The notes beneath the pieces are model-generated. The model saw only the letters and a program-made list of their open reading frames with translations. It had not been told where the DNA came from and made no database searches. Of a DNA stretch of 64,000 nt, positions 3,951 to 48,154 are shown one piece after another. The DNA is taken from IMG/VR virus record IMGVR_UViG_3300035670_000022, positions 1 to 64,000 of that record; one strand, written 5' to 3'. Origin of the DNA: a virus. The position numbers were made by a program, and so were the translations under genes. Every line of letters begins with the position of its first letter. The stretch's first letter is position 1.

Positions 3951-4679
3951 TTAAAAAATTCGCGGTGGAGTCCCACACTCGTACAGCTTACCAGTCTTTG
4001 CCATAGACCAAGATGCCCCGTCATAGTCAAAGAATAGAGGTGCGGTGCCTTCTTTTAAAAGTTGATAGGCAATTTCTAGCGCCATTAAGGCTCCGGCAAA
4101 GTTAGCGTTTAATAACTGAGGTGTAGACACAGCCTCGACCCCACAGTTACCCCGGTTCTCATCTGTAGGTTCAGCATAGTTTTGGATGACATCAAAGGGA
4201 TGACACGGCGCAATTTTACCGGATATCCGCGTATACCATGAGCAGGTTGCTGTGTGATAGTCATTCCCGGGTAGAATCACGGCGTAGTTTAAGTGTGTAG
4301 GCAGGTTATCCAAAGCACGAATGATATCGTGTCGTGCTGCCTCTGAATCAACCCCTGGGATGATTAGAGAATCATAAGGAGAGTCTAAGGCGGCGGATAA
4401 CACGAAAGAGCCGAAGTTATCTTCTCGAACGTATAGCGGATAGGCTGTGGTTTTACACAGACAGCTAAGCCGCTCAGCCAACGCAACTGCTTTGTTTACG
4501 CCTAAATATTTAGGGTCAAACAGTTGTCGAGAGCTATTACTATCTTCGTACACATCACCATCGTAGATATGAACAGCGGGTTTGAATCCTTGGCTGTAGG
4601 TAACCAGTCGGATAATAGGCTCTGCCAGAATTGTGTCTAATCCACCGGCACCACAGAAAAAGATATTAGAGAATTTCAT
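3951..4679 (-). CDS. E1/ThiF-family ubiquitin-like activating enzyme
   Basis: CGAGG Rossmann loop, IYDGDVYEDSNSSRQ, GVNKA, GVDSEAARHDI, candidate catalytic Cys in RGNCG, then PQLLNAN. Confidence 0.9.
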   Translation of the reverse strand: MKFSNIFFCGAGGLDTILAEPIIRLVTYSQGFKPAVHIYDGDVYEDSNSSRQLFDPKYLGVNKAVALAERLSCLCKTTAYPLYVREDNFGSFVLSAALDSPYDSLIIPGVDSEAARHDIIRALDNLPTHLNYAVILPGNDYHTATCSWYTRISGKIAPCHPFDVIQNYAEPTDENRGNCGVEAVSTPQLLNANFAGALMALEIAYQLLKEGTAPLFFDYDGASWSMAKTGKLYECGTPPRIF

Positions 4680-5883
4680 TTGGACTCCTGAGTGAGTTGT
4701 ATAGGTTTAATGCGCTTTGGGGAAGATGCATCTCTAGGTCAAGTTCTTCTGCTAAAGCAGATGCGACTAGAGATACACCAGAAGGGTGACTTAACACGTC
4801 TTTTAATGCCATTTCGAAGTAGCTAAAGTCTTCACACAGTTCCATCATGTACTCTTCGTCGCCTGGCACAAGATCGTAGCAGTGGTCGACGGTAAGGTCT
4901 TTTTGACTTAGTTGTTGTTCAAGACTTTTCTTATACTTACTAACGTCGACATCTGCATTCACCGCCCAGTCAGGGTTGGCATACCAGTCAGCGTAGTCAT
5001 ACCCATCGTCCCAGTAATCAAAGTTCTTATAGGCGTGACTGCGGCGAGATACGTCACTTTGATTTGGTTTTGCAGTGTAATTGGCATAGTTGCCGTATAC
5101 ACCATAAGGGTAAGTGACTTGTCGTGCCGGCTCTTGTAATTTGATGTAGCTAAATACTTTCTCATTTAGCACGACGTCGCTAGTGTCTATATGAATGGTT
5201 TGAGCTTTAAGTTCTTTTTTGTCTACCGTCTTTAAAGAACTTAAGTCAACAATGCGACTGGGGGAGAAAACGTATCTATTCTTGTTTTGGACAATGGAGG
5301 CACATAGGTCTACGGTGTCTTCAGAGATACATCCCATGGTGCAATGGGCTCCTGAGATGTCGGTCTCATCTTTGGTATCTGTTGCAGACCAGAAAGCAGC
5401 CATAGTGTTGTGACTGTGCATTGTGCCACTTACGACCCAGTCTTCAATATCGTAGCTGTCGAATTCCTCCCCTGTAAGAATGTCTACACAGGGTACTCCT
5501 CCTGACTTAGTCCGCGCGGTGCGAACCGTTGCTGCTTGAATGATTTGCATAGGGGCTAATGCCCGCCAACGGTCAATGTGTTCTGTGTGTCGCATCAATA
5601 CGACTAGAACTTCATAGTCGGGTTCTTTAAGCGCAAAAGGCAGTTGAGTACTCTGCGCTCGATCATTACAGTAGTGTCGAAATAGGGAGACTATACCCTT
5701 AAAAAGAGTCAGCGGTATCTTTTCGAAATCTGGTTTAAGGGTAAAGTTGCTTAGCTCTTGAGGCTCATCTTCGCCTTTAGGGTCATCTACTTTTGCGTAG
5801 TAGCTCCCCCAGTAGCGGTTCTCTTTAAGAACATAGAAGCCTTTTTTACCCCGGAAGAATGGTTTTTTTTGCATAATGTTCAC
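4666..5883 (-). CDS. JAB/JAMM metallopeptidase (Prok-JAB-like)
   Basis: Upstream E (YEVLV) and HSHNTMAAFWSATDTKDE = HxH-x7-S-x2-D JAMM motif. Confidence 0.9.
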   Translation of the reverse strand: MNIMQKKPFFRGKKGFYVLKENRYWGSYYAKVDDPKGEDEPQELSNFTLKPDFEKIPLTLFKGIVSLFRHYCNDRAQSTQLPFALKEPDYEVLVVLMRHTEHIDRWRALAPMQIIQAATVRTARTKSGGVPCVDILTGEEFDSYDIEDWVVSGTMHSHNTMAAFWSATDTKDETDISGAHCTMGCISEDTVDLCASIVQNKNRYVFSPSRIVDLSSLKTVDKKELKAQTIHIDTSDVVLNEKVFSYIKLQEPARQVTYPYGVYGNYANYTAKPNQSDVSRRSHAYKNFDYWDDGYDYADWYANPDWAVNADVDVSKYKKSLEQQLSQKDLTVDHCYDLVPGDEEYMMELCEDFSYFEMALKDVLSHPSGVSLVASALAEELDLEMHLPQSALNLYNSLRSPNEIL

Positions 5884-10782: not shown

Positions 10783-12342
10783 CTAATTGGATTTATCTTG
10801 GGCAAAAGGCTGCCCAGTGTTGCTGCATTGAACAGCCCGTTCTAACTCCAAGGCTAAGTAAGCTAAATGCACGGCTTTTATGGTGGGATGCATAAGAGCT
10901 ATTTCTCGACATATTTGTAGAGGGTTACAGAAATTAAGTGGATAAAATTTCTGATCGAGGTAACTACCTTTTGGGCAAGTGTGAGTAACTTCTATGCCGT
11001 TTTCTTTTAAAGATATGACAAAGTTACCAACGTCATCATGTAAGACGTGTTTAAATTGATACTGCTCGTTGATTGTTTTTTTAGCTTTCTCTAAACTCCA
11101 CTCATAAATATGAGCCGCTTGAGAAATGCAGACTAGGTCACCACAAGAGAGGTAAATATTTTTATTGAGTGTTCTTATCTGTTGACATACTGTTTCTTGT
11201 ACATAACGAAGCGCTGTCAGATTACTGCAGTAGGCTGTGTATATGTCGTGGCTGCGAAAGGTAGCTGTCAATATTAATTTGCCTTTAAAGATCTTTAGGT
11301 TAATTTGGGTTAGACAGGGAGGCTGCGCTGACCCAGCGTCGTTCTGCGGAATCCATAGAGAGACGACTGCTCGGTTGCTATCAGGGTCTTCAATCAAGGT
11401 TCGAACAGCACTTTCTACTTGATTTATCGGATTAAATATTCTTTCGCCATAGGTATACTCAACATCTTTATCTTCTTTGGGGTGCAGCATATCGTAACAA
11501 TACTCTAAGATACTCTCTCGACTAGTCACAAGCCAATCAGGAGTGTATAGCTCTTCAGGCTCTGCCTTAATAACAGAAATAAGATTTAGCAACTCCCGCC
11601 GCTTGCCGACGTTTTGTCCTGTGTAGTATACGGCGTGCATCGCCTTAACCCACGTATGGGCTATTGTTTCTGCCTCTACTCTGACTCCGTTGTCCTGTCC
11701 TGTAAATACCTGAGGGCTAGACTTTTTAATCAAATAAACCTTCGGGGCTTGCTCTTTTGGTTTAGACTCTTCTTGTGGATTAGCTTCGATATGCTCGTAA
11801 AAACTTTTTAGGTCAGTCCAGTAATGAAAGCTGCTGCATAAACTTTGAAGGTCTTGTTCGGTAAAGATGCCATCTACCTCTCCTATTACTTGTTTAGAGG
11901 AGAGGATATCCCACCGCTGTTCATACTCACTCACTTTACTATATACATAATATCCCCTCAATAGCTGTTTCAGCGCCTCACTGCCTTTAGCTAGCCGATC
12001 CTGTTTAGTGCAATTCAGAATATGAATTGGGTACAAGACTGGATTGGCAACTAGGTTAGCTACCAGAGGGCTTAATCCACAGAACGGGTTGTAGAGACTA
12101 CCAATGCAACCGTAGTCTATATTGCTAGACTCTAGCTTTGTTTGCACTCTTTCTTTAGGTGTCCAGCCTGTAACAATGATGGTGTTGCCTTTGCCTAAAA
12201 GCAGATCTTCTTTGCGGTATAGCGGTTGGTAAGACATTAGAGGTGAATAATATGAACACTTGGGGGAAAGGTCGGGATGTTCTCTGCCTTGTCCGACGTT
12301 TGGACAGCCTGTAACATCGTAGGAGTTACCCACAGTAAACAC
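10783..12342 (-). CDS. thyA: Thymidylate synthase-family fusion protein (MtrA-like N-terminus, DUF4346-like C-terminus)
   Basis: YTYGER, SNRAVVSLW, PPCL and FRSHD...N motifs; C-terminal HLAYLALELERA; likely start at ATG 12237. Confidence 0.8.
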   Translation of the reverse strand: MFTVGNSYDVTGCPNVGQGREHPDLSPKCSYYSPLMSYQPLYRKEDLLLGKGNTIIVTGWTPKERVQTKLESSNIDYGCIGSLYNPFCGLSPLVANLVANPVLYPIHILNCTKQDRLAKGSEALKQLLRGYYVYSKVSEYEQRWDILSSKQVIGEVDGIFTEQDLQSLCSSFHYWTDLKSFYEHIEANPQEESKPKEQAPKVYLIKKSSPQVFTGQDNGVRVEAETIAHTWVKAMHAVYYTGQNVGKRRELLNLISVIKAEPEELYTPDWLVTSRESILEYCYDMLHPKEDKDVEYTYGERIFNPINQVESAVRTLIEDPDSNRAVVSLWIPQNDAGSAQPPCLTQINLKIFKGKLILTATFRSHDIYTAYCSNLTALRYVQETVCQQIRTLNKNIYLSCGDLVCISQAAHIYEWSLEKAKKTINEQYQFKHVLHDDVGNFVISLKENGIEVTHTCPKGSYLDQKFYPLNFCNPLQICREIALMHPTIKAVHLAYLALELERAVQCSNTGQPFAQDKSN

Positions 12343-13722: not shown

Positions 13723-16143
13723 TTACTCGGCACAAGCGGAGCAGAACCCCTTGGTTTCGGAAGGAGATTCGTCTTCGGCGGTCGAGCCTAAACCCAGAAT
13801 AGAGAAGTCTTCGTCAATAAAAACGGAACTTTTATCTTGAGTTGCTGGCATTACCTGCAGACTGTAATAAAGACTCAATAGGGGAGAGTCTAACCAGCGC
13901 TCGATGAAGGCTTTATCCATCTGCACCATGTCACTCCACCAATTCATTGAAATGCTGTGAGCGAGTCCGGTGGTATTCATAAGACGTTGCCAAGCAGCAT
14001 TTAACCGGAATTGAATATCCCAACCTACCTCCGACGCGATTTCAACTTTAGGGTTGTAGTCATAGGATTGGACGCCAAAGGTGTCGCTGTCCCGGTCAAC
14101 TTGGCGATCGACAGGGGGAGCAATCTCAGGAGTAGTGGTATATCCCTCTATGTCCTGGTAGTTATAGGAGCATGAAGCAGTGGGAGCAATGGTAAATGCA
14201 CGCTGCATTTTGTATTGTCGGGCGACTTCAGCAGATTGCTTGAAGCCAGTGAACAGCATGTTAACGATAGTTTTAGCTGTGCTAGTCTCCTCTTGCAGTT
14301 CTCCTTCAGACTCCCATATGTCAAGACTGTCTTCTAGAGTTTCAACAAATTCTTTATAGGTGACCCCCGCAATGGCTAAGTGGTTGGCTAAGCCAAGAAC
14401 ACCGAGACCGACTTGTCGATCCTTTGAACTTGGGAGGTAGATACCGCTGTCGTCAGTACCGGTTTGGGCATGTAACTCACAGAGAAACTTCATACCTTCG
14501 GTGAAAGCAGTAGGGATCTCCGACGGGGAACATTCTCCCATGTTGATATGACTAAGCAGGCAGGTGCCCCGGGATTCTAAGAGAATCTCCAAGCAGTTAT
14601 GTACCCGCAGTCCATTACCATCGAACTCGTTAACTTTTGGTATGGTGCAGTCATAAACTTCTTGAACACCAGCAGACTCAATAGAGCTGACTTGAGCCTC
14701 TACATAGCGAGGGGTTTGTTTGTTGTCGCCTTTAGGTTTATAGGAGTCAGTTAACTTTTCCAATAAATACGCTTTGTTCTCCAAGCAGAATCCAATCTTG
14801 TTCTTGAAGACAAGTAGGTCTTCTCGCCCAGAGATTTCTAGCTGCGTGGTGCTCTTTCCTGCTTGAGATAAACGACAGCGGATGCCGAGGCGGGTTAACA
14901 TCTGCATGACCACTCGGGTAATGCTATAAGTTTCCCGAAAACAAATGCGTTTAGTCGCCCGTCCAATACGGTAGGCGGCGGGTAGGGTACAGCACTCTGA
15001 AAAGATGGCTTGAACAAATCCTTTATAGAACTGTGACGATGTGAAGAGCAGTTCTGTGGGAGCCTCCTTTTTGCCTGGCTCTAACCCATAGCTACTGGCA
15101 AGTTCTGTGAGTTTCGTGCTTAAGAAGAAGTTGAAGCCTTCTTTAACATCAAGTCCCAATTCCTTAGCGTATTCAACAGCCATAGGCATGGCGCTTTTTT
15201 TATTACCAGGAAAAGCAAGTCGTGTGATCTGCGGGGTAAATTGAATCCCTAAACAACACATCCAGCCTAATAACCAGCCTTCTTTGAAAGACCCTTTACC
15301 TTCCCAGTCTTTAGCATTTTGGTGACTTACGTGGAGAATGGTGTCTTTAGGGTAGAGATTCTTAATCGGCTTCCATCCTTCTGGAGTCAGCAGCTGGTGG
15401 TCTGGAGTAGCACAGAGACTATAACCTTGAGTCGTATTAAGAGTGACGGTCTCTTTGACGCCGCTCAACCACATTCCTTCTTCTGTAGACGGGTATTCTT
15501 TCCCCTCTACGATGGCTACAAATGCAGTACCTACTAAGTCTTTTGCGTATTTAGGTCCTTTATTGGTGTGCACCACAGTGTCCCCTGCTACGCAGACGTT
15601 GTGGTATAGCCGTGAACCAGACTCGCTGTGAGTCTTTTTCACTAACCATAGATCCCCTCGACGACAAGCAGCTAAAGCCGCTTCTAAATGTTTCCAGTTT
15701 AGGAAGTCATTGTCTACGTTCAGACATCGTTTAACCCAGGGTAGTTGTGCCCGATCTGCAGAGATGAACTCTAAGGCATCTGGGTGGTCGTAGTCGAGGT
15801 GGATTGTGATGGCTCCGTTTTTAAACGTGCCTCCTCGGCGCAGTACTTCATTGATCTTTGAGTAGATCGTAGAGAAAGACACCGGACCACTAGACACTAC
15901 ACCGCTCTTACTTTCTGTTCCTTTAGGACGCAACTTAGAGAGGTGGATAGCAACTCCTGCTGCGTTTCGTAGCGCTTTTGAAGCAAACAGCCAGGAGTCT
16001 TCTATCGCACTCACACCTTCCATGGAGTCCTCTACGGACAACACAGTGCAAGAGACGGGTAAGCGATTGTTTTTATCTTGTAGCCAGCTTTTAATACGCC
16101 CCGTCAGTGCTAGGTACTTTGGGACTTCAAGATTTGCAGACAT
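13723..16143 (-). CDS. nrdA: Ribonucleotide reductase large subunit (cyanophage short type) containing an intein
   Basis: PVSC, LRRGG, NV|CLE active site, TIAPTASCS and C-terminal CSAC. Confidence 0.9.
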   Translation of the reverse strand: MSANLEVPKYLALTGRIKSWLQDKNNRLPVSCTVLSVEDSMEGVSAIEDSWLFASKALRNAAGVAIHLSKLRPKGTESKSGVVSSGPVSFSTIYSKINEVLRRGGTFKNGAITIHLDYDHPDALEFISADRAQLPWVKRCLNVDNDFLNWKHLEAALAACRRGDLWLVKKTHSESGSRLYHNVCVAGDTVVHTNKGPKYAKDLVGTAFVAIVEGKEYPSTEEGMWLSGVKETVTLNTTQGYSLCATPDHQLLTPEGWKPIKNLYPKDTILHVSHQNAKDWEGKGSFKEGWLLGWMCCLGIQFTPQITRLAFPGNKKSAMPMAVEYAKELGLDVKEGFNFFLSTKLTELASSYGLEPGKKEAPTELLFTSSQFYKGFVQAIFSECCTLPAAYRIGRATKRICFRETYSITRVVMQMLTRLGIRCRLSQAGKSTTQLEISGREDLLVFKNKIGFCLENKAYLLEKLTDSYKPKGDNKQTPRYVEAQVSSIESAGVQEVYDCTIPKVNEFDGNGLRVHNCLEILLESRGTCLLSHINMGECSPSEIPTAFTEGMKFLCELHAQTGTDDSGIYLPSSKDRQVGLGVLGLANHLAIAGVTYKEFVETLEDSLDIWESEGELQEETSTAKTIVNMLFTGFKQSAEVARQYKMQRAFTIAPTASCSYNYQDIEGYTTTPEIAPPVDRQVDRDSDTFGVQSYDYNPKVEIASEVGWDIQFRLNAAWQRLMNTTGLAHSISMNWWSDMVQMDKAFIERWLDSPLLSLYYSLQVMPATQDKSSVFIDEDFSILGLGSTAEDESPSETKGFCSACAE
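14596..15594 (-). mobile_element. 333-aa intein with LAGLIDADG-type endonuclease domain
   Basis: Starts CVAGDT, has ATPDHQLLT and VYDC, ends RVHN followed by Cys+1; internal WLLGW and FYKGFVQAIFSE blocks. Confidence 0.9.
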
Positions 16144-30205: not shown

Positions 30206-30413
30206 GCTCGTCCTCGTTAAAATCTAACGGTTCTAGAACCAATCTTGGCTTTACGCCTTTAATAACAGGTCGTACAATTTGTACAACTTTGTAGACAGTG
30301 CCATTGCGTCTTAGAAGATCTCCTTCGCTAGTAACCCACTGTCGTGTATGGGACTGTAAATAGGAGGGGTACTCCAGACAGTAGCGGTTCTTATCTGTTG
30401 CTTTATTAGGCAT
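30189..30413 (-). CDS. Small hypothetical protein
   Basis: 74 aa, overlapping both neighbours. Confidence 0.6.
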   Translation of the reverse strand: MPNKATDKNRYCLEYPSYLQSHTRQWVTSEGDLLRRNGTVYKVVQIVRPVIKGVKPRLVLEPLDFNEDEHDLPL

Positions 30414-31731
30414 CGTCTTCCTCTTTATCCACAGATTTTTCTAGAGAATTACACATCAACATGATGCGGCAGTCGGCGTAGGTAGGGCTCTCAATAAAGA
30501 GAACTACCACTTCTCGCTTAACAACCTTAACGCTCACTAACTTCAACTCAACGATGTTAGGTTCGAAGTCTTCTGAGTCTTGGATCTTAGCAGAGATAAA
30601 CTTCTCGATTGTGGTTAACGACTGGGCTAATAACTCGTGCTTAACTACCACAGGTATCCAATCTCCTACACCCTCTAGCCCCCATACCGATACCAGAGAG
30701 CGCTCCTTTTTAGTATTGTCTTGACGCTTCGAGATGATCAGTTTATTCTTCTGCATCTCTAAAAGTATGTCTGGAGTCTGGTCCGGTCGGGGCGTTTGTA
30801 GGTCTACAAAGCCTCGTATAGTGCTGGTGATAAAGTGCCGGGTGCAAAGTTCGGTGTAACCCTGACGATTAATCCCGTAAAAATAACACAGGGCACCAAT
30901 GCTTAGGGCTGTACAACTGTATGTGGGGACAACAGGCATATCTATGTAACCTTCACAGCCGACAAACTTCACGCGATTGGGTTCTTCAGTGTTGTCCAAT
31001 AGGACTTGAATCATGCTGTTATCTTTGCCATAGACATCGGCGACTTTGTTTAAGTGTCTTCCTCGAATGGCTATGGTGAATGGATTTTGGAAGAAGCAGT
31101 CTACTTCTGTGACAATCATGTTGCTACCGTTTAGGGCACCTCCTTTTTCAGCGGAGATAATAGCGACCATGTTGTCTTCAAAGCGAAGTAGAACAGGAGC
31201 GCTTTCCTTTTCAGACACGTTTTTGTTTAGGTCGGATTGGTCTTGGTTAAGTCTGGCAGCCCGACGGAAAGCCCACCCATCAACAATTTGTGCTGCTAAC
31301 TGCCACTCTGTGGTTGGGGGGTTAAAGTCAGATATGTCACCTGCATAGACGGAGACTTCAGTGATTCCTTCATCGCTCGACTTTGTGTCTCCAGCTGCCA
31401 AGGAACGAAATCTAGCCTTTTGTCTTTTAGTGGTTGATAAGATAAGAGAGAAGTCATTAAAAAAGTCTAGAGTCCCTAGTGCGCAAACCTGATCACCCTT
31501 CAGGAGATATTCTGTGTCGATGACTCCAGTGCTAGGGCACCGCCGACTTAGCCAAATGTCTCCTTTACCGTAAGCAGTAGCAACTGCTTCTTCTGCTGTT
31601 ACTTGCTTAAAGTGAACGAAGGTGCGTGGAGAGCCCGCGGGCAATCCTTTTACGTCTTGTGTATTTAACGCTACCCACTTGATTGCTTCGACCAGTTCGG
31701 AGCCTTGTTGGAAATATATTTCGTTGTTCAT
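30406..31731 (-). CDS. Possible divergent beta-sliding-clamp-like protein
   Basis: 441 aa with alternating helix/strand pattern and DnaN-like N-terminus; next to polA and near dnaX. Confidence 0.4.
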   Translation of the reverse strand: MNNEIYFQQGSELVEAIKWVALNTQDVKGLPAGSPRTFVHFKQVTAEEAVATAYGKGDIWLSRRCPSTGVIDTEYLLKGDQVCALGTLDFFNDFSLILSTTKRQKARFRSLAAGDTKSSDEGITEVSVYAGDISDFNPPTTEWQLAAQIVDGWAFRRAARLNQDQSDLNKNVSEKESAPVLLRFEDNMVAIISAEKGGALNGSNMIVTEVDCFFQNPFTIAIRGRHLNKVADVYGKDNSMIQVLLDNTEEPNRVKFVGCEGYIDMPVVPTYSCTALSIGALCYFYGINRQGYTELCTRHFITSTIRGFVDLQTPRPDQTPDILLEMQKNKLIISKRQDNTKKERSLVSVWGLEGVGDWIPVVVKHELLAQSLTTIEKFISAKIQDSEDFEPNIVELKLVSVKVVKREVVVLFIESPTYADCRIMLMCNSLEKSVDKEEDDA

Positions 31732-31734
31732 ATT

Positions 31735-32643
31735 TTAGTGTGACCAATAAGGAGCAATATCAATACCGGCTCGACCCTTAACTTTGGAGCCAAACGTTTT
31801 ATATACCTCTGTCTCGACTTGGCACATGATTTGGCTAGCTTGTTCTAAAATGTTCATCGTTTCTGGTTGTGTCTGCCATACCAGCTTAGTCCAGCAGCCG
31901 TCTTTGTTCTTTTTACTCTTCTCTGTGTTAATTTCTAAAGATCCAGGCAGTTCTATCAAAATTTCGTCGTGAATGACACCCACAATAAAGATGTTAGTGT
32001 CTTTAAACGTCTTACGAATGCGGATAGCAGCGTCTTTAGTAATAGAAGAAGCCAATCCTTGTACAGCGTGGTTCACTGCGCTTCTAGCTGGAGACTCTCC
32101 GGACCCTTTTGCATTTGACTCATCTACGTAGCGCCAAGCACCGTAATAGGGAGTGATAGCATATCCTCTAGCAGCCGCGATGTTACCAAAGTTTTGAGCC
32201 CAGCCGTGGAAGTTAGCGTAGGTTTTTTTGTGGTTTTCGACCCAGCCTTTGGCGACCTCTTCTTTGACGTAGTTGTTCTGGGAGATGGCAAGAGCGGTTG
32301 CCATAAAAATGATAGAGAAGTTTAACCCCTTCGCAAGTTTTCTATCACCACTGTTATCCGCTAACTCTCGCCACTGGTCTTCAGGTACGTCTTTATATCG
32401 TTCTGGATTGATACAATATACGGCACTTAAAGTGTGCATATCTGAGTATGGGTTGACATACTTTGTGCCATCAGGGCGAGTTAGGGTACTTTTCACCAGA
32501 AACACTTCTGACATAGATTTGTCAGCAGATATGACAGAAGCAATCTGCGCTTCTTGGTTAGAGAAGTCTAGACTCGCAAGAATTTTACCCTTAGGTGCTA
32601 CAAGTCCCATCCTCGGGCTTGCTAGCATTTTGATGTATCCCAC
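31735..32643 (-). CDS. polA: Family A DNA polymerase, C-terminal (palm/fingers) half
   Basis: Motif A LDFSNQE, motif B RKLAKGLNF, NHAVQG, motif C IHDE; GTG start preceded by AAGGAG. Confidence 0.9.
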   Translation of the reverse strand: MGYIKMLASPRMGLVAPKGKILASLDFSNQEAQIASVISADKSMSEVFLVKSTLTRPDGTKYVNPYSDMHTLSAVYCINPERYKDVPEDQWRELADNSGDRKLAKGLNFSIIFMATALAISQNNYVKEEVAKGWVENHKKTYANFHGWAQNFGNIAAARGYAITPYYGAWRYVDESNAKGSGESPARSAVNHAVQGLASSITKDAAIRIRKTFKDTNIFIVGVIHDEILIELPGSLEINTEKSKKNKDGCWTKLVWQTQPETMNILEQASQIMCQVETEVYKTFGSKVKGRAGIDIAPYWSH

Positions 32644-32851
32644 GATTTAGCTCCTTTAGTCCTTTTTTTGTTAGTCGATAAGGCGCGCGTCCAACTATGC
32701 AGTCCTTGCGTCTCAGACTTTCTAGTAGAGCCACGGTCTTTTCATGGGAAAAGCCGCAGTCTACAGGAAAGCCTAGTTCTTTATCCTGGGGAAAGGCGCT
32801 AAGAACGAGATACTCTTCTTCACTTAGAGTGCTGAATCCGTATCCTTTCAA
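32591..32851 (-). CDS. Small winged-helix-like protein inserted between the polA halves
   Basis: TTG start overlaps the upstream TGA and is preceded by GGAGGT; LESLRRKDCI..YRLTKKGLKEL is a wHTH-like pattern. Confidence 0.6.
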   Translation of the reverse strand: MKGYGFSTLSEEEYLVLSAFPQDKELGFPVDCGFSHEKTVALLESLRRKDCIVGRAPYRLTKKGLKELNRGIHQNASKPEDGTCST

Positions 32852-34257
32852 AGCAGCACCTCCACACAAGTTGGATGCCAAGCATCCTCTTCTTTAATCT
32901 CTATCTCAACCGTGCTCCGTCCTGTGACCTGTTGAAGGTTCGGGCGCTGGCAGCTTGACCGCGAAGTAGCGGCTCCAATAGTCGTTAGAGAGTAATGAAT
33001 ACGACCAGTGACTGGATTGATATACTTCAGCAGATTCATTCCTTCTTGCTTGGTGTATTTTTTAAAGTCAACGATTTTAGCAATGATAGGAGATATCTCT
33101 TTAAGTCTTCCCATCTCAAACATCTCTAATTCGGAAAACAGGTCTTGTTCGTCTTCGTTAATCAGGATCTCTCCTAGACGTTCTTTACCAACGATGTTTC
33201 CTTCTTTATCTTCGCTTTGGTCTACGAAGAGTCTATCAATGATGTCTAGCAGTCGAGTTAGAGTCGCTTTCTGGGTGTTGTCAATTTGTTTCAGTTTAAG
33301 AGCGCGATTAACCGCTTCTAGGAGACCAGAGCTGCTTCTTAGCTTCTTTAGAGTATCAGGCGTAGGGACTAACTCTCCTGTCCAGTCTAAAATCGGCTCT
33401 TCAATCCCTAAGTCTATACAGAGTTCTGCGCCGAGTTGTTTAACTCGTTGGGATACTTCTTGTTGATAAGCCTCTAGCATCGGTTTAGAAACGCCGATGC
33501 CGCGATACTCTATCTCAGCGGCGACGACTACATACTGCAATTCTATCTCTAACAACCTTTCTGCCCCTAGCCCCCATTCTGCTTCGTTATTATTTGAACC
33601 TAGTAATGGGCTGTTAGGGAGCGGATTAGTAATGGCTGGGCGGAGAATGTTCTCTAAAGGGAACAGGTACTTTACGTCATTAGCGGCGTAGGTTACCTTC
33701 TCTGCCCACCACTCATTGTCTAGATTGCGGTGGCTTACAGGCAGATACCAGGTACTCTCCCTTAAGTCTTTTTTACCGCTAATGTGAACATTAAGATGTT
33801 CACGGCATAGGTCTGCGTAGGCATGCCCTGTAAACTGTGCCGCTTTCGACCCAGTCGCATTGCCTAACATCTTGCTATAAATCATCGTGTCTCGAATGTT
33901 CTCTGGCATAAAGCCGAAGGTTGATTGTAAAAACTTTAAATCATACCTGGCATTGTGCCAGAGAGTGTACTCGATGTTTAATAGCAGCTGCTTTAGCGGT
34001 TCAAAGTCAACTTGGTGCTCTTCGAGCCACAGAATGTCTAGCACATAGGGGATTGTCTTTTTTCCTTTTAGAATCAGAAGACTGATCTTAGCTGTGTGGG
34101 GGTCTAGAGCAGACCCCCCTTTACCCTCCCATTCAGGAAGACAATAAGTTTCGGTATCAGCAGCTAGGCAGGTTGACTGCCCTAAGACTCGCAGACAATC
34201 AAGATACTGTTGAGGTGTTGTTACATACTCAAACTTCAGTTTTTGATTAGTCGTCAT
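32848..34257 (-). CDS. polA: Family A DNA polymerase, N-terminal half (3'-5' exonuclease plus thumb)
   Basis: ExoI DTET, ExoII HNARYD, ExoIII YAAND, then GRIH..GAATSRSSC..PNLQ. Confidence 0.9.
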   Translation of the reverse strand: MTTNQKLKFEYVTTPQQYLDCLRVLGQSTCLAADTETYCLPEWEGKGGSALDPHTAKISLLILKGKKTIPYVLDILWLEEHQVDFEPLKQLLLNIEYTLWHNARYDLKFLQSTFGFMPENIRDTMIYSKMLGNATGSKAAQFTGHAYADLCREHLNVHISGKKDLRESTWYLPVSHRNLDNEWWAEKVTYAANDVKYLFPLENILRPAITNPLPNSPLLGSNNNEAEWGLGAERLLEIELQYVVVAAEIEYRGIGVSKPMLEAYQQEVSQRVKQLGAELCIDLGIEEPILDWTGELVPTPDTLKKLRSSSGLLEAVNRALKLKQIDNTQKATLTRLLDIIDRLFVDQSEDKEGNIVGKERLGEILINEDEQDLFSELEMFEMGRLKEISPIIAKIVDFKKYTKQEGMNLLKYINPVTGRIHYSLTTIGAATSRSSCQRPNLQQVTGRSTVEIEIKEEDAWHPTCVEVLL

Positions 34258-38381: not shown

Positions 38382-41300
38382 ATGAACTGCCCTACAGGAT
38401 TTCTTTGGTATCAGAAAGAAGAGAATCGGTTCCTTCTTAACGAGTCACAAACGCCAGATGGCTGGGCGCCTCTACCAGTCTCTGTTCATCCTAAGGACTT
38501 GAGTAAGGAAGATTTAGAGGCGTTAGCGGAGTCTATCAGCCGAGGAAGTCAATATACTATCCACGTTGACAAGAATTGTCCGTACGCTTCAGACGCTAAG
38601 GACAATAGAGGCAACTCTAGGTTTAGACCTTTTCGCTCTATTGAGCGGGCTTTAATAGAAGCGGCGCGGCGATCGTTCGTCGTCGGTAACACTGCTTCTG
38701 GTGGAGCGGATATAACCCAACGAATTTCTATTCATGTAGCTGCTGGAGAATATGAAGTTGAGAATGGCTACGGCGGACAAATATTTCAATCTGACTTTGA
38801 TCAACGCCAGGACGCAGCGAAGCTGTTAATTGCTAACCGCGACTATCTGGTAGAAGTTGCTTACACTTCCTATCAATCTGACCCGTTGTTTGCCCAAGTG
38901 TTGACAGAGGCTGAAGTGCTAGCCTGCAAGCGGGATTTAAGCTTCTTTGTTGATGCAGTCGCTAAAGACATTGCCGACACTGGCAACTTCTTTATGGTTC
39001 AGGCGGCTCGGACTCTTTTTACCACGCCGGGTGCGTTCATTCCTGCTTACTCTTCTTCTCCTAAACGGCAGAGTACTTTGGAGGCTATTCGGGTATTAAG
39101 AGAAGTATCTCGAGTTGTTATTAAGAATCAAGCGGAAGAGAGTAAAGGTGGGATTAGACTGCGGCATATCACTCCTGACCCGACTTCACTTACGAATCCG
39201 TATCAGGAGATTCAACTAGTCTCAGACAGTCTTTATGACATTCTGATTGATACTTTAAGTGGCTCAGTTGACCCGTTTGCTCTAGAGGTTAATCCAGGAA
39301 GCGATACAGCGAACTTCCCTAATGAGGGAGAGCCTGACGACAGAACACTGCGAGCATACAACAGCGTATACACCCCAGGAATTATTCTTCCTAGAGGTGT
39401 CTCTATTATTGGCTCTGACTTACGTAAAGTCATCATCCGTCCCAAGTATGTGCCTGCGGCCCATGATACGACAGTTGGTCGATCAGCAATCTTTAGGATG
39501 ACTGGCGGGAACTTCATATCTGGGCTCACTATCATGGATAAGAGTGGGCTATCGGAGTCGCATCACAAACTTTCCTGTTTTGAGTTCTGCACTAACGGTG
39601 ATCTTGTTTCCTATTACAACAAGGTTGCTTTAGCCTTCCAAGATAGCTCTAAGTTTAACCGTCTTCAAGATGCTGCTGGCTTGATCAAGGCAAACATCAG
39701 TTGGATTCAGAAGAAGACGTTTAAGTCTTTTGTGGCAGAGACTAGTAATCAGAAGAAATATCTAAACATATTTGAGGCTGAGATACCTGGGTTGTTAGCA
39801 GCTATTGCTATTAACTGCACCAAATTCGGTAACGAAGCAGTCTTAGACTTTGCTGACCGCTTTAAGAGATATCATATCGATCCTATTGAAGATCAGGCTG
39901 CTCTAGACAATGCTTTGGTCTTTTACTCTTCTCTGTTTTCACAGTTAGAGTTATATCTGCGTAAGGCTGTGACTAATGAGGCTAATCCGGCAGAGGGTGG
40001 TTATATCGACGAACGCATTAAAACCGACGCGGCTAGTCCGTCTAACCCATGTCAGGATGTGCAGTCTATTATTAACACCTTTATAGATATCATCCTTAAT
40101 ACTCTTAGAGGGGCAACTATTCCCAGAGTTGGTTTCTTTCCTTGGACGGTATTTGATGTTGGTCCTACGGCTTCTGAAAACCAAATTGTAGGTGCTGCTG
40201 GTCAGAATCCGATTGAAGGCGCTTCTCCTTATGTCTACTCAGTCACCCTCCGCAGCCGCTGGGGGATGTGCGGCATCGATGGGGATGGGAGTATTGTCAC
40301 CGGGCTTAAGTCTTTTCTTGCGGCTCAGTTTACTGTTATCTCGATGCAGTCTGATACTCGGTGTTTCACTGCGCTAGACGTTTTAGGAGAGGTAGAAAAA
40401 CGTTATATAGGGACTCGCGCTGCGGATGCGTCTGACTATCGCCACTTTGGCTATAGAGCGACCAATGGAGCCTACGCGCAGTTGGTTAGTTGCTTCTGTA
40501 TTGCTCCTGCAATCCATTTTTGGACAGCTAGTGGTGGTGAGATGTCCATTACAAATAGCACCAGTAACTTTGGGGATGTAGCTCTCTATGCTGAAGGGTT
40601 CTTAAAGAACGGAGAGGGCGGGGGAGCCTATCCTCAAGACCAGGGACACCGTCTTCTGGGTATTAAGAAGCCTAAGGCAGTTAGCCTCATTGAACGGATT
40701 TTTGTCCTGGGTTATCTAAAAGCAGGGGGCACTACGGTAGACCCTTCTGATAGCGCCAAGGGGACGATTACTATTACAGGCGAGGCTAATACCCACGGTT
40801 ATAACATTACTAACCCTGAGTACCCAACTCGTATTTACGCTCGGGTCTCTGGGGGTGTAGTAGCCGCAGAAGTTATTTCTCACAGTCTTAATTCTAATAA
40901 TGAGACAGTCTTTGAAGTAAAGTATATCGATAACTACGCGCTGAACTGGGTGGCTTCTGAGTACGACGTTAATTACCGTCGTGGATTAATTGGGTCTGCC
41001 ATCTATTTTGAGCGCTATGTCGATGTCCGCAGCTATGAAGATACTCTTTATCATTTAATTATTGAAAAGGCACAATCTTCTACAGAGAAGCGTCGGGAGC
41101 CTGTTTCAAAATACATTTTGCGGCTTTCTAGCGTAGCTAGTGCTCTTGACCAGCCTTTTCGCTCTATGTGGGATCCTACTAGAGGGCGGGCTCCGCTGTA
41201 TTTTATTAATAGTGCGACTGAGACTACTGCGATTCAGCCCTTCGAAGGCAAGACGAACTACGAGTTAACACCTTTATCTGCTTACTCTAATATTGAGCGG

Positions 41301-44300
41301 CAAATGGAGTCTATTGAAGATGCATATGTTACTGCTTCCTTAGACACAATGCTTGATCGGGATCCTCGCCACGGCGTTGTTGTTGATCGAGCCGACAACG
41401 TGACCCGCATTGCTGTCGAGCACATACTTGAACTTTTAGGGCTGTCTACCTACATAAGCTCTCTTAGTTTATCGACCAATAACGTTATTTCTTTTACTCC
41501 TTCTGATCGAAAACTGGTTGATTTTAACAAACCTAGTTTGATTCGCTGCTCCGGACATACTTGGGAGTATGTTGGCTATTACAACTATGACACCGCCATT
41601 CCTTCTGTACAGCCTAAGCAGTTAGGCGAAGGGTTATCTGCGGTTAGACGTGAACAGATGCGTTTCAGCAAGCTACAGACTCAAGTCGATGGAGGGCGTA
41701 TTTACGCCACTGGGATGGACGAAGAGGGAAATCTGTATGCAGGCAGCCGTGTTACAGACTTGAAAAATGGCAATCAGCGTCGGGTAAACTTAGGCACCAC
41801 CCCAGAGGTGGATGAGATGTTTCCCACAGACTTTGACATCTTACGCGTGCGTCTTCTCTACGCAGGTGACGTTTTTGTCTCTGGGGATCTCACTGTAGGA
41901 GGAACAATTTATTGCACTAACCTGATCGCGTCAGACCTGGTACGGGGCTATACCGGAGAGTTTGACATTCTCAAAACGCGAGGGGATTGCATCACCTTAA
42001 ACTCAGATGCTCTAGAAGCCAACAACGACTGGCTCTTCCGACTGTGCCGCTCTTTACTTCAAACACAGAATATTACAATTACCTTCCCGCCTAATAACGG
42101 TTTACCCGGACAGACTTTAATCACTGACGGTACCGGAGTCCTTTCCTGGGGAGACGTATCAAATGTGCCAGAAGGATATATTGCCTTTCCAGGTATTAGC
42201 CCACTAATTCCCATCAACGTGCTGCCTAGGGAGACTCCTGGCTGGAATAACGGAGCAATGAATTTAACGTCTAATGGCTGTTTAGAGATAAGTGTTAATG
42301 CAGCTGAAGGACCTTACAGTCTGGGGCCTGTTGCAATTGAAAATGGAGATAGCCTGTGGGTAAATTGGGCTCCGGGCGTATCCTGCGCTGGGGCTGCTCA
42401 TAATACTCCTATTGTGGGAGAGATTATTAGTGACGGCAATCATAAAGTAGACGGCTTGTTGTTGTTGGATAAACTCCCTTATACATTCACGTTCAACAAC
42501 CTAGGGGATCAAGTTAGAAGCAGTGTTGTTACTTCTAATATTGTCACTCTTGGCGGTATAAACGCACACACTCAACTCTGGGCAACAGGGGCTAACACTT
42601 CTAGCCTTGAGGTCAAAATTAACGGAGGCGACTGGACACCCTTGCCTAACGATGGCGAGACGGTTTTAGATATTCTGTTAATCGCCTCTGGGTCCACGTT
42701 GCAATTACGCATGACTAACAGCAGTAGTTATGCCACGGCTACTAATGTTGATATCGCCGTAGGCGATCGGGCGCTTAACCAATATGTCCCTGCTTCTTGG
42801 ACGTCGACTACGCAACAGGAGCTTATTAACGGACCTGCTATTACTAAACAGCCTGTATCTCAAACTGTTGTAGAAGGACAAAGTGCTACTTTTACCATCG
42901 AAGCTACTGGAACAGACATCACGTATCAGTGGCGTCGAGATAATCAGAATATAGCTGGAGCCACTGCTGACTCGTATACGGTATTCGATGCTACTTTGGA
43001 TTCAGCAGCTGCTTATACATGTACGGTTAGCAATGTTGCGGGAAGTGTTACCTCCAGCTCAGCAACGCTAACAGTAACTCTACGCGCTCCTGTAATAACT
43101 TCTCATCCACAAAGTGCCTTTGTGGTAGAGGGAGACCCAGCCAGCTTTAACGTCGCTGCTACCGGAACTAATCTTTCCTATCAGTGGCAGAAGAACTCAG
43201 TCAATATTTCTGGTGCTACAGCGACTTCTTACTCTATTACTGAGACTACACGACTCGATCAAGCTTCTTACCGTGTCATTGTCAGTAACTCTGGAGGCGC
43301 CGTCACCAGTTTAGGGGCTAACTTGACTGTTGAGCCAGCTTTACCTGACCCTCCGGTTATTGTTCAGCACCCGCAGTCTTTGAGTCTTGCAGAAGGAACT
43401 AATGCGACCTTTAGCGTCGTTGCTACTGGCTCCAACTTAAACTATCAGTGGCAGAAAAACAGCAGTAATATTTCAGGAGCTACTAACTCTACCCTTGATA
43501 TTTATAGTATTGATACCGGTGATGCTGCTAATTATCGTGTTGTCGTAAGTAATACAGGGGGTTCTGTCACTAGTAATCAAGCCTCGCTGTCTGTTACTCT
43601 AGCGGCTCCTGTCATTACTCAGCAGCCTCAAAGTATATCTATTAATGAAGGACAGAGCGCTACGTTTACTGTTGTCGCGGTCGGGGCGAGTCTAACCTAT
43701 CAGTGGCAAAGAAACAACACTCCCATTTCTGGAGCGACTTCGTCGTCGTATACCATTTCAAATGCAACCACGTCTTCTGCCGCGAACTATCGAGTTGTGG
43801 TAACCAACGCAGGTGGCGCTGTCACCAGTAATAATGCTACCTTGACGGTTACTATTCCAGCTCCTGTCATTACACAACATCCAGTGTCTCAAAACGTTGA
43901 GCTGGGTAATTCTGCTACTTTCTCTGTAACAGCTACAGGAGCCGCGCTTACGTATCAATGGCAAAAAGACGGAGCGAATATTAGTGGGGCGACATCTTCT
44001 TCGTACAGTATTCCTAGCACTACTAATGGTAATAGCGGATCTTACCGAGTACGGGTTCAAAACTCTGGAGGAAGTGTCTTTAGTAACTATGCAGAGCTGA
44101 GTGTTTATGAGGCGTATATTCCTTTACGAATAGTTACTCAGCCACAGGATGTGTCTGGTGACCCTAATACTCTTGTCACACTTTCTGTTGTAGTAGCCGA
44201 TGGAGATCAACCCTACTCTTATAAATGGTACAAAGTCGGCAGCTCTACTGTATTAGGTACTCAGCCATCGTTTAGCGTCTCTATTACCCCGCAAAACGTG

Positions 44301-47086: not shown

Positions 47087-47206
47087 ACAGCTTACTCTTA
47101 CTGGCTGCAGTCGTTGCTTGTCTAATTTCTGAACCGTTTACAATTTGAAGCAGTGGATTCCCCTCCACTGCTTTATTATTTTTTTGTGTCGTTTGGTATT
47201 TCAACT

Positions 47207-48154
47207 ATGAGCAGCTACTACATCACCTCTAAGCGCGATGGATTTGGACAGTATCTTAATGAGATAGGTATGTATCCGACTCTAACTAAAGAGCAGGAGC
47301 AAGAGTACGGCAAGAAAATTCAAAAGATGATGCTTTTTAATAAGCTGCTAGAGTCAATACCTCTAGATAGCGCAGTGCAGCTAAAGGCTCAAGCCTGTGC
47401 GTGCTCTGTGCAGGAGTTTAATCTTGTTTATCGACATGGTGCTATCTCTCGAGACCGGATGTTAAAACACAACCTAAAGCTGGTTGTGCATATTGCTCGT
47501 CGGTATAACAACAGGGGTGTTGATTTGGAGGATCTTGTGCAAGAAGGTAGCGTTGGGCTGATGCGGGCGGTAGAGAAGTTTAACCCAGACCTAGGGTTTA
47601 AGTTTAGTACCTACGCTGGGTGGTGGATAAAACAATCAATTATTCGAGCTATTGCTAATACCTGTCGATCTATTCGTCTTCCTGTTCATATACATGATCT
47701 TCTAAATAAGATTCGTCGAGTTGAGCGGGATTTTTTTCAACAAACAGGAAGGACGCCTAAGTTGTCAGAAGTTGCTGACATCATTGGTGTACCTGCGGGT
47801 AAGATCAGTCGAGTCCAGCAACATTCTAAAAATGTGTGGAGTTTAGATATAGAGAGTTATGACTCAGATGACTCACCTTCGATTGAGGAGTCGTTTGTTA
47901 ATACGGTTGCTACTCAACAAGCTGAATATCTATTTGATATCCAGCATCTTACTGAGTCGATGTTACAGGAGTTGGACGAGTTGGAGCTGGCAGTAATGGT
48001 TCGTCGTTACGGATTAAACACCGGAATTAATCTGTCTTACCAGTCCATAGCTGATGAATTGGGTTTAAATACCCAAACAGTCAGAAAGATCAGTCTTGGC
48101 GCCTTTGAAAAGTTAAAGAACCACGTGGTTCAGTCTGGTATCTCCATGTTCTAA
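47207..48154 (+). CDS. RpoD/SigA-like sigma-70 factor
   Basis: YLNEIG.YP.LT, NLKLVVHIARRY, DLVQEGSVGLMRAVEKF, KFSTYAGWWIKQSI, IRLPVH and region-4 HTH. Confidence 0.95.
   Translation: MSSYYITSKRDGFGQYLNEIGMYPTLTKEQEQEYGKKIQKMMLFNKLLESIPLDSAVQLKAQACACSVQEFNLVYRHGAISRDRMLKHNLKLVVHIARRYNNRGVDLEDLVQEGSVGLMRAVEKFNPDLGFKFSTYAGWWIKQSIIRAIANTCRSIRLPVHIHDLLNKIRRVERDFFQQTGRTPKLSEVADIIGVPAGKISRVQQHSKNVWSLDIESYDSDDSPSIEESFVNTVATQQAEYLFDIQHLTESMLQELDELELAVMVRRYGLNTGINLSYQSIADELGLNTQTVRKISLGAFEKLKNHVVQSGISMF

Follow-up and report, generated by a model that had tools for sequence, protein, structure and literature searches.

Family A DNA polymerases (PolA) are textbook single-chain polymerases. Phage polymerases encoded by more than one open reading frame (ORF) have been described in a few cases, and what is said of them here refers to the accessible parts of the cited sources. 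PolA of T7-like cyanophages (S-SBP1-like) is split between exonuclease and polymerase at the domain boundary (Czernecki et al., 2023; PMC10201439), and a 'split DNA polymerase' has been reported in uncultured T7-like cyanophages (bioRxiv 10.1101/325100, 2019). In the B-family system of phage PhiKZ, the chains DNAP-N and DNAP-C form a stable 1:1 complex, and the DNA-binding protein Rhc boosts its activity (PMC13648687, a 2026 preprint). The Mic1 paper (PMC7156551) describes a Pol-gamma-like gene that occupies two ORFs, with an 'intron' of 298 bp. The Microcystis phage Ma-LMM01 has an A-family polymerase, for which a split is not mentioned in the accessible text of the two studies reporting it (Kazlauskas and Venclovas, 2011, 2016; PMC3201878, PMC4889955). 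Here we describe a locus in the first 64,000 nucleotides (nt) of the IMG/VR virus record IMGVR_UViG_3300035670_000022 (hereafter the window; the full record has 155.9 kilobases, kb), in which three genes between positions 31735 and 34257 encode the N-terminal part of a PolA, a small protein and the C-terminal part of the same PolA. We consider it about 60% probable that these genes form a conserved module encoding a family A DNA polymerase of separate chains together with a winged-helix-like protein tied to the split.

The genes follow one another head to tail on the minus strand, in the order N-half, mini-gene, C-half. The N-half (32848–34257, minus strand, 469 amino acids, aa) encodes a 3'-5' exonuclease domain and, up to TGR and PNLQQ, the initial third of the polymerase domain; the mini-gene (32591–32851, minus strand, 86 aa, TTG start) encodes the winged-helix-like product; and the C-half (31735–32643, minus strand, 302 aa, GTG start) encodes the palm and the fingers, including motifs A, B and C. 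The exonuclease domain of the N-half was recognised as PF01612 (E 3e-16, 60.2 bits against a cut-off of 23.6). The polymerase profile PF00476 is divided between the two halves, with positions 28–143 of 381 in the N-half and positions 142–344 in the C-half (E 2.7e-24), both above the cut-off. After PNLQQ the N-half continues for 26 residues, close to the ≈27 aa after PNLQ given in a first-pass annotation of the window, and the motif A Asp is residue 26 of the C-half. These two pieces are the only PF00476 matches in the 155.9-kb record, which is 88% complete according to CheckV and in which no match to PolB or PolIII-alpha was found.

Both halves keep their catalytic motifs, as the first-pass annotation had stated. 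Under their usual names, these are Exo I (DxE), Exo II (NxxFD) and Exo III (YxxxD) in the exonuclease domain and A (DxSxxE), B (RxxxKxxxF) and C (HDE) in the polymerase domain. The exonuclease residues D34, E36, N102, F105, D106, Y190 and D194 are invariant or nearly so across 21 N-halves, and the polymerase residues D26, Q30, E31, R101, K105, F109, H225 and D226 are invariant across 10 C-halves.

The mini-gene overlaps both halves. The mini-gene is listed among the ORFs of the window as a 96-aa entry (32591–32881), of which homologues align only from residue 11 or 12 onwards, and we therefore place its start at the TTG at 32851–32849. This TTG overlaps the TGA of the N-half (32848–32850) in the context cTTTGA and is preceded at 6 nt by a Shine-Dalgarno-like GGAGGT (32858–32863, minus strand) within the N-half coding sequence. 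At its 3' end the mini-gene overlaps the start of the C-half by 53 nt, and a second Shine-Dalgarno-like motif, AAGGAG (32651–32656, minus strand), lies within the mini-gene, 7 nt before the C-half GTG. Both motifs were assigned from sequence. The GTG start is supported by relatives, which keep the residues upstream of Met12. The layout thus agrees with the first-pass annotation, which had an 86-aa ORF starting on the N-half stop codon and a C-half with its own Shine-Dalgarno motif and GTG about 25 aa before motif A. Promoter and terminator scans gave counts at chance level.

The same division is found throughout the closest relatives. A search with the N-half returned 91 matches, of which 69 had E ≤ 4e-51, and 66 of these 69 (the protein of the window included) consist of the N-half only. 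They are 421–496 aa long without an intein and 582–803 aa with one, and a pattern search found motif A in none of them. The remaining three are two fragments and a single fused full-length protein (P0091, 742 aa). The other 22 matches (E ≥ 1.5e-10) are distant ordinary PolAs. The search with the C-half found 10 other proteins, all of them stand-alone, 212–316 aa in length and with 36–71% sequence identity. The stop-to-stop ORFs of related loci were scanned with three profiles, one each for N-half, mini-protein and C-half; a search for such loci with the single C-half protein gave no relatives, while an alignment-based query did find some.

The closest named phages are the Microcystis phages of the Ma-LMM01 group. 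Ma-LMM01 encodes gp180 ('3'-5' exonuclease', 427 aa), gp179 (hypothetical, 51 aa) and gp178 ('DNA polymerase', 320 aa), so that, as in its MaMV relatives, a family A PolA is cut at the same place as in the window. The tail after NxQQ is conserved, the C-half ends in YWSH and a uracil-DNA glycosylase gene lies downstream, as in the window. The two systems differ in that sequence identity is only ∼26% and that the small gap ORF, gp179, has no relation to the mini-protein, with an hhalign probability of 0.07%. In the accessible parts of the papers and in the record annotation, the Ma-LMM01 genes are not called a split polymerase.

In four relatives the halves do not even lie next to each other. 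The C-half is found 2.9 kb from the N-half in L042, 1.7 kb in L120 and 0.7 kb in L126. In G001 (the 97.5-kb record of locus L121) the N-half, which carries an intein, lies at ∼88.7–90.4 kb and the C-half at 40.2–41.9 kb on the same strand, 45 kb apart. The C-half of G001 is itself in at least two pieces (41274–41909 and 40221–40448), and the mini-gene is at 43134–43364. Since the halves lie apart, cis-splicing and ribosomal bypassing are excluded in these four cases. Judged from the gene positions, this shows that the two chains are expressed independently in genomes with separated halves. L126 (NBNH01000163.1, 9.5 kb) was the only match among 185,579 species genomes and had been binned in an Actinomycetales metagenome-assembled genome; because the whole module of N-half, mini-gene and C-half is present, the contig binned there probably belongs to a phage and gives no clue to the host.

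Taken together, the break conserved across the clade, the intact motifs, the halves unlinked in one relative and the lack of any intron or intein signal at the break (see below) argue for a two-chain PolA rather than a gene that is damaged or interrupted by an intron or intein. The natural two-chain enzyme proposed in the first-pass annotation is hence well supported.

To follow the split among relatives, a quick maximum-likelihood tree was made from 66 N-half rows (60 ingroup rows and six distant PolAs as outgroup), leaving off 13 near-identical intein-bearing rows, four fragments and 14 of the 20 non-fragment distant PolAs. All 60 ingroup rows fall on one side of a branch with a Shimodaira–Hasegawa-like approximate likelihood ratio test (SH-aLRT) value of 98. 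The window belongs to a 12-row group (SH-aLRT 96) inside a 46-row clade (97), and this clade holds every mini-gene locus placed on the tree; the mini-gene carriers L124 and L125 are not among the rows. Two fused rows group with the split row P0089 (95), and gp180 of Ma-LMM01 forms a long basal branch. On this tree the fused or split state has changed at least twice.

The break is located inside the polymerase domain, at PF00476 position 142/143. A profile alignment to Klentaq (chain 3po4_A) places the end of the conserved part of the N-half at ∼299 and the beginning of the C-half at ∼302, which correspond to roughly residues 590 and 594 of Taq (using the offset between 3po4_A and 1taq_A from the same tables). 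The two pieces therefore abut in a canonical PolA. The split clade has extra residues on both sides of the break, namely an N-tail with an alternating hydrophobic pattern and a C-head ending in a conserved (N/S)PR. The fused relatives P0091 and L036 (a 760-codon open frame, ∼747 aa from the first Met) keep both pieces and join them by a linker of 30–40 residues. By these alignments, the linker is an insertion specific to the clade, and the break sits within it.

A model of the fused P0091 fits this picture. It was made with AF2 from an alignment that combined fused rows with rows for the single halves and has a mean predicted local distance difference test score (pLDDT) of 82.3; the local values given here are means over 10-residue blocks. 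PNLQN at 394–398 is followed by a strand at 403–408 (pLDDT 57), an unstructured linker at 409–435 (47–57), a second strand at 436–441 (70) and the motif A strand at 453–460 (above 90). The break of the split form falls in the low-confidence stretch 409–435.

According to the first-pass annotation the polymerase gene had been split by an inserted winged helix-turn-helix mini-gene. The comparison does not show this, as the Ma-LMM01 branch has the same break without the mini-gene and the linker is also found in the fused relatives. The mini-gene is nevertheless closely associated with the split in the rest of the group. It is present in all 13 split-PolA contigs outside the Ma-LMM01 branch (L116–L126, L034 and L042; the loci L114, L004 and L115 belong to L117, L118 and L120, in this order), and in 12 of these the order is N-half, mini-gene, C-half. 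The start of the mini-gene usually overlaps the end of the N-half in the related loci. In G001, the thirteenth contig, the mini-gene lies 1.2 kb upstream of the C-half and 45 kb from the N-half. Where extra DNA has been inserted, the mini-gene stays beside the N-half in L120, L042, L126 and L034 and beside the C-half in L122 and G001, and every copy with visible DNA context adjoins a split PolA. The L034 locus has an additional 132-aa ORF (4579–4977) with two resolvase/homeodomain-like helix-turn-helix (HTH) domains (PF02796, PF13384) between the mini-gene and the C-half.

The mini-gene was not found in the 10.9-kb L036 locus around the fused gene (5 kb on each side), nor at E ≤ 0.1 in the complete genome of Ma-LMM01 and two related contigs; the same kind of search detects it in G001 at 3e-29. 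A HMMER scan of 1.84 billion representative proteins gave 13 homologues of the mini-protein at E ≤ 1e-3, the best with E 1.7e-25 and 69% identity. All are 71–118 aa long and none is fused to another domain. A tblastn search of the mini-ORF against 50,697 phage records gave nothing at E ≤ 0.01, and a smaller mini-protein alignment (A3) found two related loci. The alignment of the 14 sequences shows a conserved core and a strongly conserved segment, G-(R/K)-A-P-Y-x-L-T-K-K-G. We compared nonsynonymous (pN) and synonymous (pS) differences in three locus pairs, counting only the part of the mini-gene that overlaps neither polymerase half. The pN/pS pairs were 0.125/0.817, 0.284/0.675 and 0.298/0.610, by which the mini-gene is under purifying selection.

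The AF2 model of the mini-protein (pLDDT 75.7) has helices at residues 11–17, 36–48 and 62–74 and a strand at 58–60, an order resembling that of a winged helix. Nearly all of the top 50 Foldseek hits are winged HTH proteins with template modelling (TM) scores of 0.6–0.7, but their E-values are 0.025–0.3; the best are the Rio2 N-terminal domain, the MarR family, Sso10a, STIV F93 and PadR. A structure search of the Atlas gave TM scores of 0.68–0.82 (by query) to MarR/PadR/HTH_45 clusters. With Pfam, PF24409 was hit in 10 and HTH_45 in eight of the 14 members, all below the curated cut-offs. As both the Foldseek E-values and the Pfam scores are weak, we call the protein winged-helix-like and do not assign it to a named family. 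Its model shows the helix-helix-helix-wing layout of MarR/PadR-type proteins and of small viral winged HTH proteins such as STIV F93 (PDB 2co5), as expressed in the TM scores of 0.6–0.7. It differs from MarR proteins in being short, at about 75 aa, and without dimerisation helices, and it has no family membership at the sequence level.

How such a module might work can be outlined as follows. The N chain would bring the proofreading exonuclease and, of the polymerase domain, the part as far as TGR and PNLQQ; motifs A, B and C would come with the C chain. The linker would be divided between them as a tail of ∼20–26 residues on the N chain and a head of ∼20 residues on the C chain, each with a predicted β-strand. 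These strands, together with the ordinary surfaces between subdomains, may hold the chains together without any splicing, so that N and C would associate non-covalently and be active together. The mini-protein would be translated from the same message, coupled to the stop of the N-half, and would work with the split enzyme, probably as an assembly or DNA-binding accessory subunit and not as an unrelated passenger. The role as a third subunit or regulator put forward in the first-pass annotation is accordingly a plausible one, as far as gene context and conservation can tell.

Several observations weigh against this interpretation. The winged-helix assignment is statistically weak, both in the Foldseek E-values and in the sub-cut-off Pfam scores. 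The absence of the mini-gene from fused genes comes from one locus (n = 1) with 5 kb on each side, and since the Ma-LMM01 branch is split without having a mini-gene, the mini-protein must be dispensable for split PolA in general. The two strands flanking the linker in the P0091 model have low to moderate confidence (57 and 70). The tree does not resolve the base of the clade and fits either order of fission and fusion. Finally, as the record is estimated to be 88% complete, another polymerase could sit in the missing part.

A stricter version of the two-chain enzyme with its accessory protein is an obligate heterotrimer, in which the mini-protein is a dedicated third subunit that arose with the split and was lost on fusion. 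Here the mini-protein might clasp the N-tail and the C-head, or might add a grip on duplex DNA that offsets the broken polymerase domain. We regard this as possible and put it forward tentatively.

Alternatively, the enzyme has two chains and the mini-protein is a DNA-binding regulator, for example a repressor of the replication operon or some other phage transcription factor, kept in place by coupled expression. Structurally it comes closest to DNA-binding winged-helix proteins, among them those of the MarR/PadR type. Its most conserved part is the wing (G-R/K-A-P-Y-x-L-T-K-K-G), which is basic, and phages of the Ma-LMM01 type have the same split but not the mini-protein. From a general regulator one would, however, expect neither the position between N-half and C-half that 12 of the 13 contigs show nor an attachment to one half where the two have been moved apart. 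There are only 13 clusters among 1.84 billion representatives, and all visible copies are beside a split PolA. A purely regulatory role is unlikely in our view.

The mini-gene could also be the surviving DNA-binding piece of a mobile element that cut the gene, and thus a relic or selfish passenger with no role in the polymerase. This stretch of the gene is indeed a hot spot for mobile elements. At least 22 relatives of the N-half carry an intein, some with an HNH domain, and in six aligned relatives the intein site is TGR|S, five residues before PNLQ. In another PolA clade L012, L013, L026 and L056 are uninterrupted, whereas L011, L014, L020 and L021 are interrupted exactly at PNLQQ. The interruption in L020 (4695–4932) is a group I intron (Rfam, 95.8 bits) at SSSNP|NLQQIP, and that in L021 contains a LAGLIDADG ORF at the same site. 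Further cuts in the C-half occur in L004, L116, L117 and L119; they fall in motif A (DYAG|QE), close to profile position 108 and at motif C. In L004 (3149–5468 and 5605–6234) the first break holds ORFs of 119 and 370 aa, of which the longer weakly resembles LAGLIDADG proteins, and the piece after it is followed by a LAGLIDADG ORF of 209 aa. Rfam found no intron model at gathering score in the L004 breaks.

A mobile-element origin of the split is plausible. The extra HTH ORF beside the mini-gene in L034 also speaks for the relic reading. Genes in pieces through mobile elements are known from Aeromonas phage Aeh1 (nrdA-a/mobE/nrdA-b) and phage T4 (gene 39/mobA/60). In these an essential phage enzyme is made as two working chains and a small gene lies in the cut, as in the window. 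The inserted gene is a recognisable homing endonuclease there, whereas the mini-gene is without a nuclease domain, universal in its clade and under purifying selection. Neither the mini-protein nor its 13 homologues had a Pfam nuclease domain (LAGLIDADG, HNH or GIY-YIG), and hhalign comparisons of the mini-protein with the LAGLIDADG ORFs of L021 and L004 and with the nearby HTH ORF gave probabilities below 1%. The inteins and LAGLIDADG ORFs are sporadic in these genes, and the mini-gene is found in every member of its clade. Because of this universal presence and the lack of similarity to nearby endonuclease and HTH ORFs, it does not look like a selfish passenger today. An origin of this kind would in any case be compatible with a present function, and we find it improbable that the mini-gene is nothing else than a relic.

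A single polypeptide might instead be restored by RNA splicing, by ribosomal bypassing of 204 nt or by protein trans-splicing. The two polymerase pieces do share one frame, and the 301-nt RNA of the junction folds slightly better than shuffled sequences (z −2.55). The gap of 204 nt contains about ten stops of all three kinds (TGA, TAA and TAG), which excludes read-through and an altered genetic code, and it encodes a conserved protein in another frame. As the first-pass annotation had noted, there is no sign of an intein or a group I intron. Rfam at E ≤ 1 found no intron, including group I (RF00028), between 31000 and 35000 of the window; the same library, run at its gathering scores, does recognise the L020 intron that interrupts PNLQQ. 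With Pfam at E ≤ 10, neither half and neither of two fused relatives gave an intein or Hint signal, and the same kind of search flags inteins in 22 of the 91 N-half matches. The N-tail (26 aa) and C-head (∼20 aa) have no conserved intein junction residues (Cys/Ser, His-Asn) across the 13 loci and are too short for known split-intein halves. Both are conserved as protein and retained in the fused relatives. We also considered a dead intein acting as a clasp between the halves and found it unsupported at this threshold, which a very degenerate remnant might escape.

All public runs compared at the junction were DNA contigs of low depth. One 'joint' from 32574 to 33745 came from matches of 26–42 nt with several mismatches in an unrelated 8.9-kb contig and was considered noise. 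With the halves 1.7 to 45 kb apart in relatives, restoration of a single chain is very improbable. Sequencing or assembly error and recent inactivation to a pseudogene are negligible as explanations of the break, as a 798-nt contig from another sample of the same study spans 32473–33270 with 0 differences and 0 gaps, which settles the possible artefact raised in the first-pass annotation, and the same break is present in dozens of diverged relatives with intact motifs.

The separate-chain PolA with its associated mini-protein can thus be set beside the described systems, again within the accessible parts of the sources. The S-SBP1-type phages likewise encode a family A polymerase by two genes, with products presumed to assemble non-covalently; that split arose by gene fission and involves neither intein nor frameshift. 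The break there is at the boundary between exonuclease and polymerase, whereas here it is within the polymerase domain (PF00476 position 142/143), and no conserved third gene is described in that text. The S-SBP1-type phages belong to T7-like cluster 5, while the closest named phages of the window are Ma-LMM01-like and not T7-like. The nearest functional analogy is PhiKZ, where two chains and a third, DNA-binding protein form the same kind of arrangement as proposed here. PhiKZ differs in that its polymerase belongs to family B and in that Rhc consists of an RNase H and a clamp-like domain and is not a winged helix; moreover, that system has been shown by cryo-EM and assays, while the present one is proposed from its genes. 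Our literature search, which had supplements and the original Ma-LMM01 genome paper (Yoshida, 2008) outside its scope, came upon no description of the mini-gene or of a PolA cut within its polymerase domain as in Ma-LMM01.

Several other genes of the window were recorded. Directly downstream of the C-half is a 441-aa ORF (30406–31731, minus strand) with no Pfam match. The clamp-like gp176 lies near the same position in Ma-LMM01, and the ORF was compared with it as a candidate relative but showed no BLASTP similarity. The large subunit of ribonucleotide reductase (13726–16143, minus strand, 806 aa; PF02867, PF14890) contains an intein splicing domain and is thus another replication-related gene of this phage that hosts a mobile element. 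In a 519-aa ORF (10786–12342, minus strand), a thymidylate synthase domain is joined to a pterin-binding DUF4346 domain at the C terminus. Also on the minus strand are a SelO-like protein adenylyltransferase fragment (1345–2202; PF02696, E 1.4e-33) and a ThiF-family ORF (3954–4679). Positions 47153–48151 (plus strand) encode a sigma-70 family factor of full length, comprising regions 1.2, 2, 3 and 4.

The only PolA split that we found in print separates whole domains (exonuclease and polymerase), and here the cut goes through the polymerase domain itself. The large phages of an entire clade (contigs of 97–217 kb as well as cultured Microcystis phages) would accordingly build their only recognisable polymerase from chains that are cut within a domain. 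For annotation this means that the separate 'exonuclease' and 'DNA polymerase' genes of the clade should be read as halves of one enzyme, and that the short ORF separating them is a conserved gene in its own right. The latter is also a candidate new accessory protein and, if the heterotrimer is true, would be a subunit type not known for PolA. The natural split points may be of use for engineering split PolA enzymes, and the clade as a whole would offer a natural system for how a polymerase active site assembles from pieces.

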